DNA of 64,000 nucleotides from Rhabdochlamydiaceae bacterium (GTDB taxonomy: Bacteria > Chlamydiota > Chlamydiia > Chlamydiales > Rhabdochlamydiaceae), in assembly GCA_047459655.1 (NCBI GenBank), contig JAJREF010000005.1:96001-160000 (forward strand), read 5' to 3'. Within the stretch, counting starts at the first letter, position 1, and every line of letters begins with the position of its first letter. Shown here piece by piece: positions 21,092-26,272 of the stretch. The notes under the pieces are model-generated. The model made no database searches. It was not told the origin of the DNA and saw only the letters and a program-made list of their open reading frames with translations. Both the position numbers and the translations under genes were made by a program.

Positions 21092-24000
21092 TTAAAAAAT
21101 AGAACAATAAGAGTCATCTTTGGGTGGCTCGTTTACGGAAGGGGGCTGGGCGCTATTTAACCTTGTGCTAGATTGTAAAATTTCTTGAACGCCTCGATGA
21201 TGATTCTCAATAGCCAGCTCAATTGCTGTTTTGCCCTCTCGAGTTTTAACCTCATGGTCCAGATAAGGAACCATTGATAAGATCAATCTGACCCCTTCCT
21301 CCCATCCTAGCTCAGCCGCTAGATGGAGTGCCGTATATCCATCCTGTCTCGATCTTTCTACCGGGCATCCTTGTTTGATCAAAAAAGAAACAACAAATCC
21401 CATACGTTTAGCAACGGCTAAATGCAAAGCTGTAGAATGATCCCCTAATTGGTGCTGAAGATCAATATTTTGTAAATCGAGCATGAGTAAAGCCAGGTTC
21501 TCAAATCCCTGATAAATTGCAATCATAAGAGGATTCATGCCCATTGCTGTTTTGCAATTAGGGTTAGCTCCTGCTAGTAGTAAGGTGTTTGCAACATCTA
21601 AGCGATTTTCTATCGCTGCTACATGAAGAGGGGTTGCATGTGCTCTATCTATAGAGTCAATAAGAGAGGGCTGAACATTTATTAACATTTCTACATTTGC
21701 TAAACATCCATTTTTAACTGCATGGTGCAACGCCGTGTATCCTTCGACACTGCGAGCTGTAAGAGGGGCGTTAGATCTTATTATAACGTCTAAAAAGAAA
21801 GGATCTTTAGCATCAGCGGCATAATGAATACTGCTAAAACCAAAAACATCTTGAAAATCCCAATCTCTAATTTTTAAGGCAGCTTCTTGAAAGGCCGCTT
21901 TGTCTAGTTCTACGATTGCTAGAAGAGCTTGAAATTGAACTTCTGTTAAAGGTTTTCTTGGATTTGGTGCATAAAAACAACTTGTTGTGTCTCCTTGTTC
22001 TATTTGATCATCAAGAGAAAAAGATTCAAATTCCATTTTGAATAAAATGCCGGTTAGGCCCTCTTCGGAGTGCACATAATGCACCTGTTGTGGGGGAAGA
22101 TCGCTTATGAGCTGATCATGCTCTTTTTTTATCTGACCAGCTCGTGGGTCAAATTCAGCTACCTTATCCCCAGGTAGCATGTTAATCCCACCATTAGAAA
22201 AGGCTTGGATTCCTTTTTCTGTTTTATAAGAATAGGGGACTTCCCTGGATAAAATCAAAAACAGCAAAAATGCCCTCAAGAGACACTTTCAAAGGCTCTT
22301 GCAACCAAGCGCTCCAAGTCTGTTGAAGCGCCAATAACTCTTCTCTGTGTTTTTCTATTGATAGAAGATCCGTTTTACGTAAATGAAGTTGGGCTTGATC
22401 TTGAGATTTTAAGATTAGATCTTGCTGCTTTCTCAGTAGTTCTTGAGACTCTTTGAGCCTGTCTTCTACTTCGATTAGATATTTACGGACAACTTCTTCT
22501 GTTATAGGCTCTCCTTCCTTTTTAAAAGATAGTCTAACAAGACCCTGACCTAAGCTTGTATGGACAGCCTTATGGCCTAAACTGCATTTTGATAAGAGAA
22601 TGTGAGCTATTTGTTGGCAGAAGGAAAGATCTTTAAATTCATTATTTTCTGCCAGAAAGCAAGTCGCGTATTCTTGTAACGCTTGTGCAAAATATTGAAT
22701 ACTGCCTTCTGTTAGCTGCTCATTTTTAATAGCAGCACAGACTTCTAGCCGCTGCTTTACCTGCATTTGTTCCAAAAGATCTAATACTCTTATCTGCGGT
22801 CTTTTAGGATGGGTGGCGTTTTTGAGATAAGGCGGAAAAATAGAAGGGCAAATTTTCCCATTATCAGGAAAAAACCTATGGATAAGAGAAGGTACTTGCC
22901 CTGCTTTTTTAAGCGTATTAAAATAGTAGGAAAAGAAGTTAATAATTGAGAGGGCTTCGCAGTGTTTTTTAAGAAAAGGTAAGCTAGTTAGTACCCTTTT
23001 TGTTTGAGCACACAGAATGTCGCATGCATTTGATAAAAGAGCGTGATAAGCTTCTTCACCAGGTAGAGGCGAGGCTGGATAAAGGTGGGGTACAAGGTCA
23101 AAATCACCATCTAATATGAAAAGACCATCTGTATAATGAATGGCGTTTTGCTTTGCAACAATAGTTACACCTGCCTGGTAATTTTTTATTTTTCGTTCTT
23201 GGGAAACACCTCCTGTTGCTTGTTTTTTTGTTAATTGTTCTATGATTTCGTCTAAAGAATAGATTTCCTCTCCGCAATAATCAGAAAATTTCAGGCTGTT
23301 TTTTGAAAATAGCGCTTCATCAATAAGGGGATTTTTACTCCATTCCAAAATGAATTCTTCTGAATAGAAACGATTCGCGCTAAGCCCTTTCATGTAATAA
23401 TCTAACATGGAAAGGAAATAGCCTATTAATCCTTGGTAGATGGGCTGAACAACGGGGTAATGTGTTAGGTTGAAATTGGCGTGCAAACTGAAAAATGGCA
23501 CTTGATCATGAAGAAAAATGCCTCTTGCCAGCTCGCAAAGCAACTGTTGAATTTCTTCTTGCGTTAAAGAAAGTGCTCCCTCACAAGGAATGAAAAAAGC
23601 ATGTTCCTGCCTTTGTAAGGCATGAGGATCATCAAATAGATTGGAAATTATCCCCGTACACTGCTCTATTCCTTTTACAGATTGGCTTATTTTTTCTGGT
23701 GCAATTATTTTCCTCGGATGGGATCTCATATAAACATCCATAATATTATTCAATTTTATCCCTATTACAAGATGGAATTCAGAAGGATCTATTAATTTAT
23801 ATTTTAAAGGAACAAAGTTGCCGCCTAAAGGGGATTCCAAATCTTCTTTGCCAGCGTTGAGCAAACACGTTACAACCCCCATTTTTTACAACACCTTTCA
23901 CAACATAGGCCCAAGCCTGGGCTCCATCTTCCATTATCTTGAGGTAAACTTCTATTCCATGAGGCGTGGTAGTTACTTTATTTTCTGGGTCGGATACCGC

Positions 24001-24471
24001 TGCTAAGATGTAAGTCCTATTTTCAGGTGTATCTTGCGCAAAGTGGCCTCTACTCTTACGAAATATATGTCCTAATTCGTCTGCTTTATCTGTGATAGAA
24101 GGCTGTTGATAAGCGCTAGCTGCTGCCTGAGCTTTTTCTGTAGATGTTTTACCTGCCGCTCTGAGATGGGGCCAAACGATCATTTCTTGTCTAGATGGCT
24201 CATATACTAGATCCCAATGATCTCCTGGGTAGGCCTTTATGGCTTGCAGCGTTTTCAAGGGGGGCGAAGCTTTATTGAGGGGATTAATAATTCTGTTCAT
24301 AGAAAGAAAAGTAGTGCGGCCTTCTGGGGAAACCACAGTAGCAAAAAACTTATCCTGCGCCACCTCCCATATGTTCAAACGATTTTGTGTATGGTCTGTA
24401 TAGTGGCAAACAGATGTGAGTGGAAAGGTCCCTTGGGCATCTAACCAGTTAGTTTGTAAACCTATATCCAT
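21092..24471 (-). CDS. About 1120-aa multidomain effector: leader + polymorphic-toxin-like nuclease + helical region + ankyrin repeats + CaaX-like end (2 frameshifts)
   Basis: Overlapping ORFs 23797-24471, 22224-23882, 21092-22279; HIFRKSRGH..DTPENR..GAQAWAYV..NGGCN; ankyrin consensus (GYTALHHAVKNG, TPLHVAA, TALHLAV, GYTALHLAA); ends DDSYCSIF. Confidence 0.75.
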
Positions 24472-24473
24472 AC

Positions 24474-24986
24474 TTATCTTTCTCCTCGCGGTGGTAGCTC
24501 ATCTGTCCAGTCGAGATATGTAATCCCTGTGTTAAAACTATCCCTGATTGCTTTTTCCCATATGGCCCACTCTTCAGCATGTTGTTCGGGCTTTGTTTGC
24601 ATGGATTCAAGTAAGTGTTGAAGAGCATCAATATTAGAACCGGCAATTCTTTCACGAAAGATTTCATTCCATAATTTACAGAACTCCACAGTGCACAGAA
24701 AGACTTCTTTTTCAGTTAATCTTAAAGAGCGCTGCTTTTCTTTGGGTATTCCCTTCATCCGGGATACTGCTTCATTCCAATGTGGGCTGCTTTCAAAGCC
24801 CATGCATACATCCCTGAAAAAAATTTCATGACAATCATGGGGAGATAGAGCCTCTCTTATCTTTATTTCTTCTTTAAAAAAAGACCATAGATAATTAAAA
24901 AAATAGAGGGTTATATTAAATCCATGCTCCATCGAAAAAGTCCCATCAAACGCAGCGCTTTCCTGAAGATATGCACAGTCTTTCAT
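24474..24986 (-). CDS. Putative immunity protein, copy 2 (170 aa)
   Basis: LTEKEVFLC..EF..LLESM..EWAIWEKAI motif with a weaker N-terminal repeat; stop 2 nt before toxin start. Confidence 0.7.
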   Translation of the reverse strand: MKDCAYLQESAAFDGTFSMEHGFNITLYFFNYLWSFFKEEIKIREALSPHDCHEIFFRDVCMGFESSPHWNEAVSRMKGIPKEKQRSLRLTEKEVFLCTVEFCKLWNEIFRERIAGSNIDALQHLLESMQTKPEQHAEEWAIWEKAIRDSFNTGITYLDWTDELPPRGER

Positions 24987-25053
24987 AAATCACGTCCCAA
25001 TTTTGCATTTTCTAGTGAAAATTGTATTCTAGCTTTTACAATTTCTGCAACTC

Positions 25054-25536
25054 CTATCGGTTTCCCCAATTCTTGGGGCCCTGATTCTCAGGTGTATCTT
25101 GCGTAAATTGGCCTCTGCTCTTACGAAATATATGTCCTAATTCGTCTGCTTTATCTGTGATAGGAGGCGGTTGATAAGCACCACCTACTGCCTGAGCTTT
25201 TTCTGTGGATGTTTTGCCTGCCGCTCTGAGATGGGGCCAAATGATCATTTCTTGTCTAGATGGTTCATAAACCAGATCCCAATGATTTCCTGGGTAGGCC
25301 TTCATGGATTGTAGCGTTTTGATGGGAGACGAAGCTCTATTGAGCGGATTAACAATTCTATCCATAGAAAGAAAAGTAGTGTGGCCTTCCGGCGAAACTA
25401 CAGTAGCAAAAAACTTGTCCTGCGCCACTTCCCATATGTTCAAACGATTTTTTGTACGATCTACATACTGGCAAAGAGATGTTATTGGAAAGATTCCTTG
25501 GGCATTTAACCAGGCAGTTTGTACACTTATATCCGT
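25054..25536 (-). pseudogene. Truncated duplicate of toxin gene 5' part
   Basis: ATG replaced by ACG at 25536-25534; homology ends at DTPEN inside the nuclease domain. Confidence 0.85.
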
Positions 25537-25538
25537 AC

Positions 25539-26051
25539 TTATCTCTCTCCTCGCGGTGCTAGCTCATCTGTCCAGTCGAGATCTGCCATTCCCGCCCTAA
25601 AGCTGTTTCTAACTGCTTTTTCCCACAAGGCCCACTCTTCAGCATGTTGTTCGGGTTTTGCTTGCATGGATTCGAGTAAATCTTGAAGAGCGTCAATATT
25701 AGAATCGGCAATTCTTTCACGAAAGATTTCATTCCATAATTTACAGAACTCCACAGCGCACAGAAAGACTTCTTTTTCAGTTAATCTTAAAGAGCGTTGC
25801 TTTTCTTTAGGGATTCCCTTCATCCGGGATACTGCTTCATTCCAATGTGGACTACTTTCAAGGCCCATGCATACATCCCTGAAAAAAATTCCATGACAAT
25901 CATGAGGAGATAGAGACTCCCTTATCTTTATTTCCTCTTTAAAAAAAGGCCATAGATAATTAAAAAAATAGAGGTTTATATTAAATCCATGCTCCATCGA
26001 AAAAGTCCCATCAAACGCAGCACTTTCCTGAAGATATGCACAGTCTTCCAT
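25539..26051 (-). CDS. Putative immunity protein, copy 1 (170 aa)
   Basis: 19 of 170 aa differ from copy 2 (hand count); intact ORF. Confidence 0.7.
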   Translation of the reverse strand: MEDCAYLQESAAFDGTFSMEHGFNINLYFFNYLWPFFKEEIKIRESLSPHDCHGIFFRDVCMGLESSPHWNEAVSRMKGIPKEKQRSLRLTEKEVFLCAVEFCKLWNEIFRERIADSNIDALQDLLESMQAKPEQHAEEWALWEKAVRNSFRAGMADLDWTDELAPRGER

Positions 26052-26272
26052 AAATTACGTTCCAAATTAATGAGGTAATTGCAAAACCTAAATTGGTGTC
26101 AAATTTGCATTTTACAACTATTTCTAGTGAAAATTGTATTCCAGCTTTTACAATTTCTGCAACTCCTATCGATTGCCCAATTCTTGGGGTTTGAGTTTTT
26201 TGGTGAAATACCCTACACTACCTTTCTATGTATATTGGTGATCTTCCTTCCCAAATTAAAAGCAGGAAACGG

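Follow-up and report, generated by a model that had tools for sequence, protein, structure and literature searches.

What kind of gene pair is it when a protein with a tail of ankyrin repeats carries a toxin-like domain close to its N terminus and is preceded, two nucleotides (nt) upstream, by a small gene resembling an immunity gene, and at whom is such a pair aimed? The question was raised by a locus in a Rhabdochlamydiaceae bacterium (assembly GCA_047459655.1; 1.6 Mb, 82% complete), within a 64,000-nt stretch of contig JAJREF010000005.1 (positions 96,001 to 160,000), referred to here as the window. A preliminary description of this DNA had suggested that an interbacterial nuclease and its immunity protein were rebuilt as an effector directed at eukaryotes. 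Sequence comparison indicates that the large gene belongs to a family in which toxin tips are swapped at the N terminus of a constant scaffold, together with tip-specific partners; its own tip, called HIFR after a motif, is likely an RNase of the BECR fold, and the 170-amino-acid (aa) product of the small gene is likely its cognate immunity protein. One sequencing run holding the stretch (X1, from lake water) was compared with the window as contigs. The features of the pair, in window coordinates, are as follows.

21082 to 26188, strand not assigned: accessory island, bounded by the break in synteny with genome G358 of the same genus
24474 to 24986, minus strand: small gene 1, an open reading frame (ORF) for the 170-aa likely cognate immunity protein, of a two-module helical family
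24151 to 24471, minus strand: conserved leader, residues 1 to 107 of the large protein, a predicted export/processing domain that ends WPHLRAAG right before the tip
23851 to 24114, minus strand: HIFR toxin tip, approximately residues 120 to 207, a predicted BECR-fold RNase (AlphaFold2 [AF2] predicted local distance difference test [pLDDT] 89; VIA-align matches mostly BECR toxins)
22302 to 23780, minus strand: conserved scaffold (PFFSLH, YPVxxP, LDYYMKG) with helical stalk (AF2 pLDDT 86)
21092 to 22279, minus strand: ankyrin piece of 6 to 7 repeats ending in CSIF, which is CaaX-like (Pfam Ank_2, E = 1.6e-50)
23843 to 23851, minus strand: first frame change within the large gene, probably an assembly error (tblastn with intact relatives; X1 disagrees weakly)
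22192 to 22275, minus strand: second frame change within the large gene, probably an assembly error (tblastn with relatives; X1 gap from 22129 to 22320)

The HIFR tip is a predicted RNase shared with Rhs proteins

In the large protein the tip motifs HIFR, GHF, DTPENR and NGGCN begin at residues 135, 142, 147 and 197. Residues H135, H143, R152, Y176 and W187 are conserved at 91 to 100% across 173 tips, with values of 98% and 99% for the histidines, 97% for the arginine, and 100% for the tryptophan. A profile search with the tip returned 1,369 clusters. Among 179 HIFR proteins that were fetched, 112 carried the tip no more than 40 residues from the C terminus and without the scaffold, 55 carried it before the scaffold, and 12 had other arrangements. 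The Rhs core domain was present in 4 of 12 tip carriers tested, and the HIFR tip therefore ends true Rhs proteins, which bears out the resemblance to Rhs-type toxin tips that had been suspected from the letters. Plasmid records yielded one match to the tip and phage records none.

No significant match to the tip was obtained in Pfam, NCBIfam, or PDB-sequence searches. When the predicted structure, a core of one helix and four strands, was compared by VIA-align, the best match (Z = 5.7) was the toxin of a Salmonella toxin-antitoxin pair, followed by the CdiA C-terminal domains (CdiA-CT) of Kp342 (6cp9; Z = 5.5, root mean square deviation 2.9 Å over 74 residues, approximately 10% identity) and O32:H37 (8ey4; Z = 5.0); Ykris, BrnT, a Serratia contact-dependent inhibition (CDI) toxin, CdiA-CT of NC101 (5i4q; Z = 4.3), colicin D, YxiD, and MqsR were also among the top ten. 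These scores are modest, and values below 8 may reflect a common arrangement. The expectation of a BECR fold is favored by the top VIA-align rows, which are mostly BECR toxins, and not by Foldseek, which ranked 6cp9 second and gave no match at E ≤ 0.001. We consider the tip likely to be a BECR RNase because the list of fold matches agrees, and not because of any single score. Characterized BECR tips of CdiA cleave tRNA or rRNA (PMC9086364).

The small protein is a two-module relative of the partners of C-terminal HIFR tips

Eight chlamydial ORFs were found with HIFR tips at the C terminus, and all eight are followed directly by a gene of 66 to 75 aa; a Scytonema plasmid carries a similar pair. 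This 70-aa partner family has 421 relatives, and among 120 of them listed, 24 are tandem forms with two modules. A profile of the tandem forms aligned with the 170-aa family over 126 columns at a profile-profile (HH) probability of 92.8% (E = 3.9e-7), and the real score of 47.0 compares with a maximum of 15.5 in 40 column-shuffled controls. Applied to 3,377 ORFs, the tandem profile gave 56 matches, 43 of which are members of the 170-aa small family. The single-module profile matched that family weakly (probability 9 to 30%), so that the relationship is clear only with the tandem profile. By these comparisons the 170-aa protein, with its two modules, is homologous to the partners that trail C-terminal HIFR toxins, in agreement with its earlier recognition as immunity-like.

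The association of the two genes was then examined at 59 scaffold loci, a survey that the preliminary description had called for. The small family was present at 24 of 25 HIFR-tipped loci, the single locus without it beginning at a contig end, and at 0 of 34 non-HIFR loci; some of these 34 are cut at the N terminus, and kin among the 59 are not independent. With respect to position, among 32 HIFR ORFs 19 had a same-strand partner upstream, 9 had a divergent one upstream, 3 had the partner downstream, and 1 had none. An immunity-like gene is therefore upstream in 28 of 32, and the reversed layout proposed for the window holds for most of these HIFR ORFs. Together, these data make it likely that the 170-aa protein is the cognate immunity protein of the HIFR tip.

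Searches of Pfam, NCBIfam, and PDB sequences gave nothing significant for the small protein, which has no solved relative there, and all ESM Atlas scores for it and for the scaffold were under 0.9. A pattern scan of genome contigs with the small protein alone gave 29 pattern matches, of which zero were confirmed. An export signal was not seen on inspection of the immunity proteins. Ten loci contain two or three long immunity paralogs that are 27 to 83% identical to one another. In a mirror test, tip and immunity distances correlated at r = 0.79 over 22 pairs, a value confounded by ancestry; after ancestry was controlled for (13 pairs), the correlation of leader with immunity protein (0.59) exceeded that of tip with immunity protein (0.38).

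In P0167, a HIFR tip is apparently joined in one ORF to its own immunity-like module. A second chlamydial toxin family was also seen, with proteins of 530 to 700 aa that have a C-terminal HIFR tip followed by the 70-aa partner in the classical order (L109:2100-3925, L110:4574-7101, L112, L113, L114, and L119). Several have signal-peptide-like starts, L110 carries an orphan pair downstream, and two members examined had no Pfam match.

Tips are exchanged on a constant scaffold across Chlamydiota

The scaffold was found in 52 of 401 genomes of the phylum (31 of 211 genera) and the N-terminal piece in 49 of 400 genomes, with Simkania, Rhabdochlamydia, and Neochlamydia records among the HIFR/scaffold family. 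Members share a layout of leader, variable segment, scaffold, and ankyrins. Non-HIFR tips matched Ntox28, which we take to be the CysK-dependent EC536 tRNase family, in 15 of 31 cases, 12 of them above the cut-off; the remainder had no Pfam toxin match. When one Ntox28 tip was compared with PDB sequences, a weak match to CdiA 5j5v was obtained (E = 0.31). Partners change with the tips: one helical family, without a PDB relative, precedes 13 of 15 Ntox28 tips (HEAT_2 matches in two), another family precedes 4 of 4 GWxD tips, and leucine-rich repeat proteins precede five HVD tips.

In a 75-row scaffold tree the tip label changes at least 24 times among seven labels; four of these labels are motif groups defined in this analysis, the tree was made by a quick method with no shuffle control, and one Ntox28 label is unconfirmed by Pfam. 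Starred groups that mix tips include L079/L150, L074/L160, L145/L070, and L071/L076/L083. Ten short forms have a hydrophobic N terminus in place of the leader that resembles a Sec signal peptide by inspection, and all nine divergently transcribed immunity genes belong to such forms. Orphan cassettes or runs of several immunity genes occur in the window, at L035, L041, L093, L101, and L173, and at other loci. The family thus shows the genomic traits of polymorphic toxins, namely, a shared toxin domain, tip exchange, an adjacent partner that changes, and orphan cassettes. The single fusion event implied by the preliminary description gives way to a polymorphic family whose N-terminal tips can be swapped and whose orphan cassettes lie upstream.

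The HVD, EGLPDG, GWxD, and HxxKH tips (L069, L073, L074, L076, L082, L085, and L042) have partner families of their own and no match in Pfam or NCBIfam. L074 appears to combine an HVD tip with part of an Ntox28-like tip.

The window copy corresponds to one gene in an accessory island

G358 is syntenic with the window up to 21081 and again from 26189, and an AbiEi/AbiEii pair and an IAT_beta gene lie between these points in its genome; because the flanks match and the contents differ, the interval is an accessory island at a variable site. On the minus strand, the stop of small gene 1 falls 2 nt ahead of the ATG of the large gene at 24471. The latter is split over three ORFs, 23797 to 24471 (224 aa), 22224 to 23882 (552 aa), and 21092 to 22279 (395 aa), which together span approximately 1,125 codons (24471 to 21095) and correspond to one intact gene of 940 to 1,140 aa in relatives. 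Four intact relatives (1,058 to 1,140 aa) aligned by tblastn in order with all three pieces, none of which contains an in-frame stop. ORF coordinates and intact relatives thus agree with the described arrangement of a 170-aa gene before a frameshifted gene of about 1,120 aa, and its parts, a leader of some 107 aa, the HIFR domain, about six ankyrins, and the CSIF end, were confirmed by motif positions, the Ank_2 match, and an X1 contig.

Independent reads gave weak support for a single frame. X1 differs from the window at the first break, only 24 nt from the end of an X1 contig, and the second break is not covered by X1. X1 also differs inside the small gene, at a place where the window agrees with its paralog. 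The C-terminal end of the large gene lies inside the independent X1 contig 20554 to 21845 with zero differences. Since the X1 evidence is thin, the single-gene reading rests mainly on the intact relatives. The neighboring thrS and a conserved 850-aa gene (16704 to 21071) have two frameshifts each and show the assembly to be rich in such errors, so split genes need caution here, and both breaks of the large gene are for this reason probably assembly errors.

Upstream of the pair, the island contains a 1,065-bp tandem duplicate that is 87% identical and includes an orphan cassette (25081 to 26051).

25539 to 26051, minus strand: small gene 2, an intact 170-aa member of the immunity family, 89% identical in aa sequence to small gene 1
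25081 to 25536, minus strand: orphan remnant of leader and first third of tip, start-less at the matching place and truncated after DTPENQ
25009 to 25077, strand not assigned: 69-nt repeat upstream of small gene 1, at the edge of the duplicated unit (repeat comparison)
26121 to 26189, strand not assigned: 69-nt repeat at the border of the island, upstream of small gene 2 (repeat and synteny comparison)

Small genes 1 and 2 differ at 16 synonymous and 19 non-synonymous codons. The spare small gene 2 has stayed intact while its accompanying tip decayed. An origin of the duplicate as an assembly artefact was rejected, as both copies are found on separate X1 contigs.

Leader, scaffold, and C terminus

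A PxLxAAG-like end was present in 47 of 54 family leaders, and no NCBIfam or Pfam family matched the leader. Many leaders begin Ser/Thr-rich, as is typical of type III substrates. The scaffold matched no known family or fold in Pfam, NCBIfam, or PDB sequences, or in Foldseek at E ≤ 0.001; in VIA-align of its 493-aa model, coiled-coil matches to residues 421 to 493 dominated, so that the core was barely probed. The ankyrin piece has seven repeat-like starts spaced 33 to 36 aa apart. Cys at position −4 (CaaX-like) was observed in 10 of 57 family ends versus 18 of 784 long ORFs of the same genome. Three orphans of 343 to 349 aa that have no ankyrins still end in CSLM. The CaaX-like carriers are mostly close kin, and 47 of the 57 ends are without the motif.

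Long members have a SecA-like neighbor, and the scaffold extends beyond the phylum

Of 32 long members (at least 1,900 aa), 31 have a SecA_DEAD-like gene nearby, versus 1 of the 16 short members with enough flanking sequence to show one, and P0201 fuses scaffold and SecA domains in a single protein. The genome under study has one SecA-like locus, far from the island. The SecA-like neighbor is a possible dedicated export ATPase of the long forms. Examples of such genes are L031:14698-17466, L030:297-3047, and L042:8419-12000.

Outside Chlamydiota, full leader-tip-scaffold genes with an upstream partner were found in Mycoavidus (L186) and in two Neisseriaceae bins (L173 and L174). Four Legionella species (L179, L180, L183, and L188) and gammaproteobacterial bins (L176 and L181) carry a leaderless scaffold with other N-terminal cargo. 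The scaffold carriers found are restricted to likely intracellular bacteria. L173 has an upstream orphan of leader and tip, and L174 has two partner paralogs. The leaderless cargo comprises Gly/Ala-rich helical segments, a Lipase_3 domain (L181), and a domain with an NNNSGHYKP motif (L176).

The target may be a rival bacterium in the same host cell

The reading that we prefer, with slightly under even confidence, is that the pair serves to poison competing bacteria, probably kin, inside a shared host cell. A bacterial target is favored because ten loci keep diverged spare immunity paralogs and the window keeps an intact spare copy beside a decayed tip, and because the signal-peptide forms keep immunity genes yet would need little self-protection. 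Endosymbiont toxins with adjacent immunity genes have been read as intraspecific weapons (Zhang et al., PMC3482391).

Under this proposal the immunity gene would come first in the reading order, since an RNase at the N terminus would fold while the rest of the chain is still being made. The leader would route the protein out and would probably be cut at PxLxAAG, since a Sec-type signal peptide replaces it in one sub-clade; long members likely use the neighboring SecA-like ATPase, and the short form in the window is without one. Anchoring to a host membrane, for example at the inclusion surface, may rely on the ankyrins and, in the window copy, on host prenylation of CSIF. Delivery of the tip into the target would fall to the scaffold, and H135, H143, and R152 may then cut tRNA there. 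New cassettes of tip and immunity gene would recombine at the 5′ end, with old ones left upstream. In its widest form, which we put forward tentatively and with more doubt than conviction, the family would be a mirror-image class of polymorphic toxins of eukaryote-dwelling bacteria (Chlamydiota, Mycoavidus, and relatives of Neisseriaceae and Legionella), with a leader that is cleaved off, an exchangeable nuclease at the N terminus, a new-fold scaffold, an ankyrin rod, SecA-like export in long forms, and host-membrane anchoring in short ones, that kills competitors within a shared host.

Several points weigh against a rival bacterium as the target. A route from the host cytosol into another bacterium is not known for the scaffold, and the host is suggested by the ankyrins, by the CaaX ends, and by an occurrence confined to intracellular bacteria. 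Spare immunity genes may be remnants of recombination only (PMC3482391, section 41). Fine-scale co-variation of tip and immunity protein was not significant (r = 0.13, P = 0.23, 8 close pairs), and all 20 short forms, including that of the window, make up one starred clade that is HIFR-tipped throughout. The large gene is broken in this assembly, and the modest Z values and the Foldseek result for the tip also count here.

The nearest competitor, which we regard as possible though well below an even prospect, is the host-directed effector of the preliminary description: an ankyrin- or prenyl-anchored protein whose tip would cut cytosolic or mitochondrial RNA of the host, with the immunity protein guarding the producer before export. 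It would account for the excess of Cys at −4 over the genomic background, including the ankyrin-less CSLM orphans, for the scaffold in Legionella, Mycoavidus, and other likely intracellular bacteria, for the leaderless gammaproteobacterial versions with cargo such as Lipase_3, and for the Ser/Thr-rich leader starts. However, most family ends are without the CaaX-like motif and most of its carriers are close kin, and neither the diverged spare immunity genes nor the immunity genes beside signal-peptide forms are explained; host-directed endosymbiont toxins, moreover, are mostly without immunity genes (Zhang et al., PMC3482391). Of that earlier proposal, kinship with a toxin stands, while the eukaryotic target does not follow, as CaaX-like ends are a minority and spare immunity genes fit attack on kin at least as well.

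It is improbable that the pair is a selfish addiction module that retains the island, or a host lock that would, in the manner of Wolbachia cif, do harm to hosts after loss of the symbiont or after arrival of an incompatible strain. Antidote-first order is typical of toxin-antitoxin operons. The AbiEi/AbiEii pair at the same site in G358, the patchy distribution (52 of 401 genomes), and the upstream antitoxin of a Cif-like module (PMC6133264) would agree with this, but a conserved body of 1,100 to 2,700 aa, signal peptides, and a SecA-like partner in 31 of 32 long forms are costly for plain addiction, and the immunity proteins have no export signal by inspection. Very improbable is a window copy decayed to a three-piece pseudogene of which only the immunity genes are still used: the two assembly breaks (the second outside X1 coverage), the long end branch of the window scaffold (1.24), and the true or apparent splitting of relatives L027, L066, and L100 point to decay, but the essential thrS is also broken twice in the same window, the pieces free of in-frame stops retain the catalytic candidates and motifs, and X1 disagrees, if weakly, with the first break.

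Comparison with known systems

Like classical Rhs, CdiA/CDI, and MafB systems (PMC3482391), the family draws on a shared pool of tips (HIFR and Ntox28), with partner genes, tip exchange, orphan cassettes, and immunity genes in series. Toxin-then-immunity order has been called pervasive in classical polymorphic systems (PMC3482391, section 41); unlike in Rhs and CDI, the tip here is N-terminal (residues 120 to 207 of approximately 1,125), immunity gene and orphans lie upstream, and an unnamed scaffold with ankyrins replaces YD or hemagglutinin repeats. Pfam scans of the window pieces and nine intact relatives found only ankyrin families, NCBIfam gave no repeat or trafficking domain, and no CdiB, type VI, or type VII secretion system markers were seen next to the locus. 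The predicted helix-plus-four-strand core is like that of the BECR CdiA-CT tRNases (6cp9, 8ey4, and 5i4q), but identity is about 10%, there is no PDB-sequence match, and the His-His-Arg set is unlike the active sites listed for them.

The X-Tfe/X-Tfi pairs of Xanthomonadales (PMC6759196), which are antibacterial, likewise combine a variable N-terminal toxin with a constant C terminus and an upstream immunity gene. Unlike them, the chlamydial family has a leader before the tip, a constant part of 800 to 2,500 aa with ankyrins, and intracellular carriers; XVIPCD had no Pfam match, the C terminus consisting of ankyrins, and the type IV secretion system itself was not searched for. With the cifA-cifB-like modules of Wolbachia and Rickettsia (PMC6133264) it shares an endosymbiont toxin, an upstream antitoxin, nuclease-type domains, and ankyrins, but its tip is BECR-like, its partner changes with the tip, and no Cif, OTU, or PD-(D/E)xK match was found in Pfam scans. 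The APD1/APD2 proteins of Amoebophilus (PMC3482391) likewise belong to an endosymbiont, have an N-terminal domain in common, and vary in their toxic cargo, and SecA-like domains occur among them; their cargo is C-terminal after a lipobox and is read as host-directed, whereas the chlamydial cargo is N-terminal with a cognate immunity gene.

The literature searched gave no description of the leader-tip-scaffold family, in line with the earlier remark that no described chlamydial system of this kind was known, and the precedents for toxin-first proteins with an upstream immunity gene lie outside chlamydiae (PMC6759196 and PMC6133264); supplements such as Additional file 1 of PMC3482391 could list single members. 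The accessible text of bioRxiv 2021.10.19.465003 does not mention chlamydiae. PMC3482391 credits obligate intracellular chlamydiae with toxins but with almost no immunity genes; candidate toxin-immunity pairs can now be named in about an eighth of the sampled genomes of the phylum. Polymorphic toxin domains have been noted in Protochlamydia, and how chlamydial symbionts bar other bacteria from amoebae was left open in the same source (PMC6520448). If true, the mirror-image class would be a candidate mechanism by which environmental chlamydiae protect amoebae from other invaders. Other products of the analysis are a toxin tip that has no name yet and the immunity family that belongs to it, additional tips without names, a scaffold for which no fold is known, and a SecA-like partner, perhaps the sign of a new export route.

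The insertion site and its surroundings

The site after the 850-aa gene beside thrS is a hotspot (window 21082 to 26188; L037, L039, L035, L190, and L191). Three genomes of a different genus have the scaffold family here in the reverse orientation, and G096 has an unrelated 872-aa gene. Farther along the window, a near-perfect palindrome of 165 nt lies between two genes (27443 to 27607; fold z = −21.5). It is absent at the syntenic site of G358 and has copies of 94 to 95% on contigs C1 and C2, resembling a miniature inverted-repeat transposable element.

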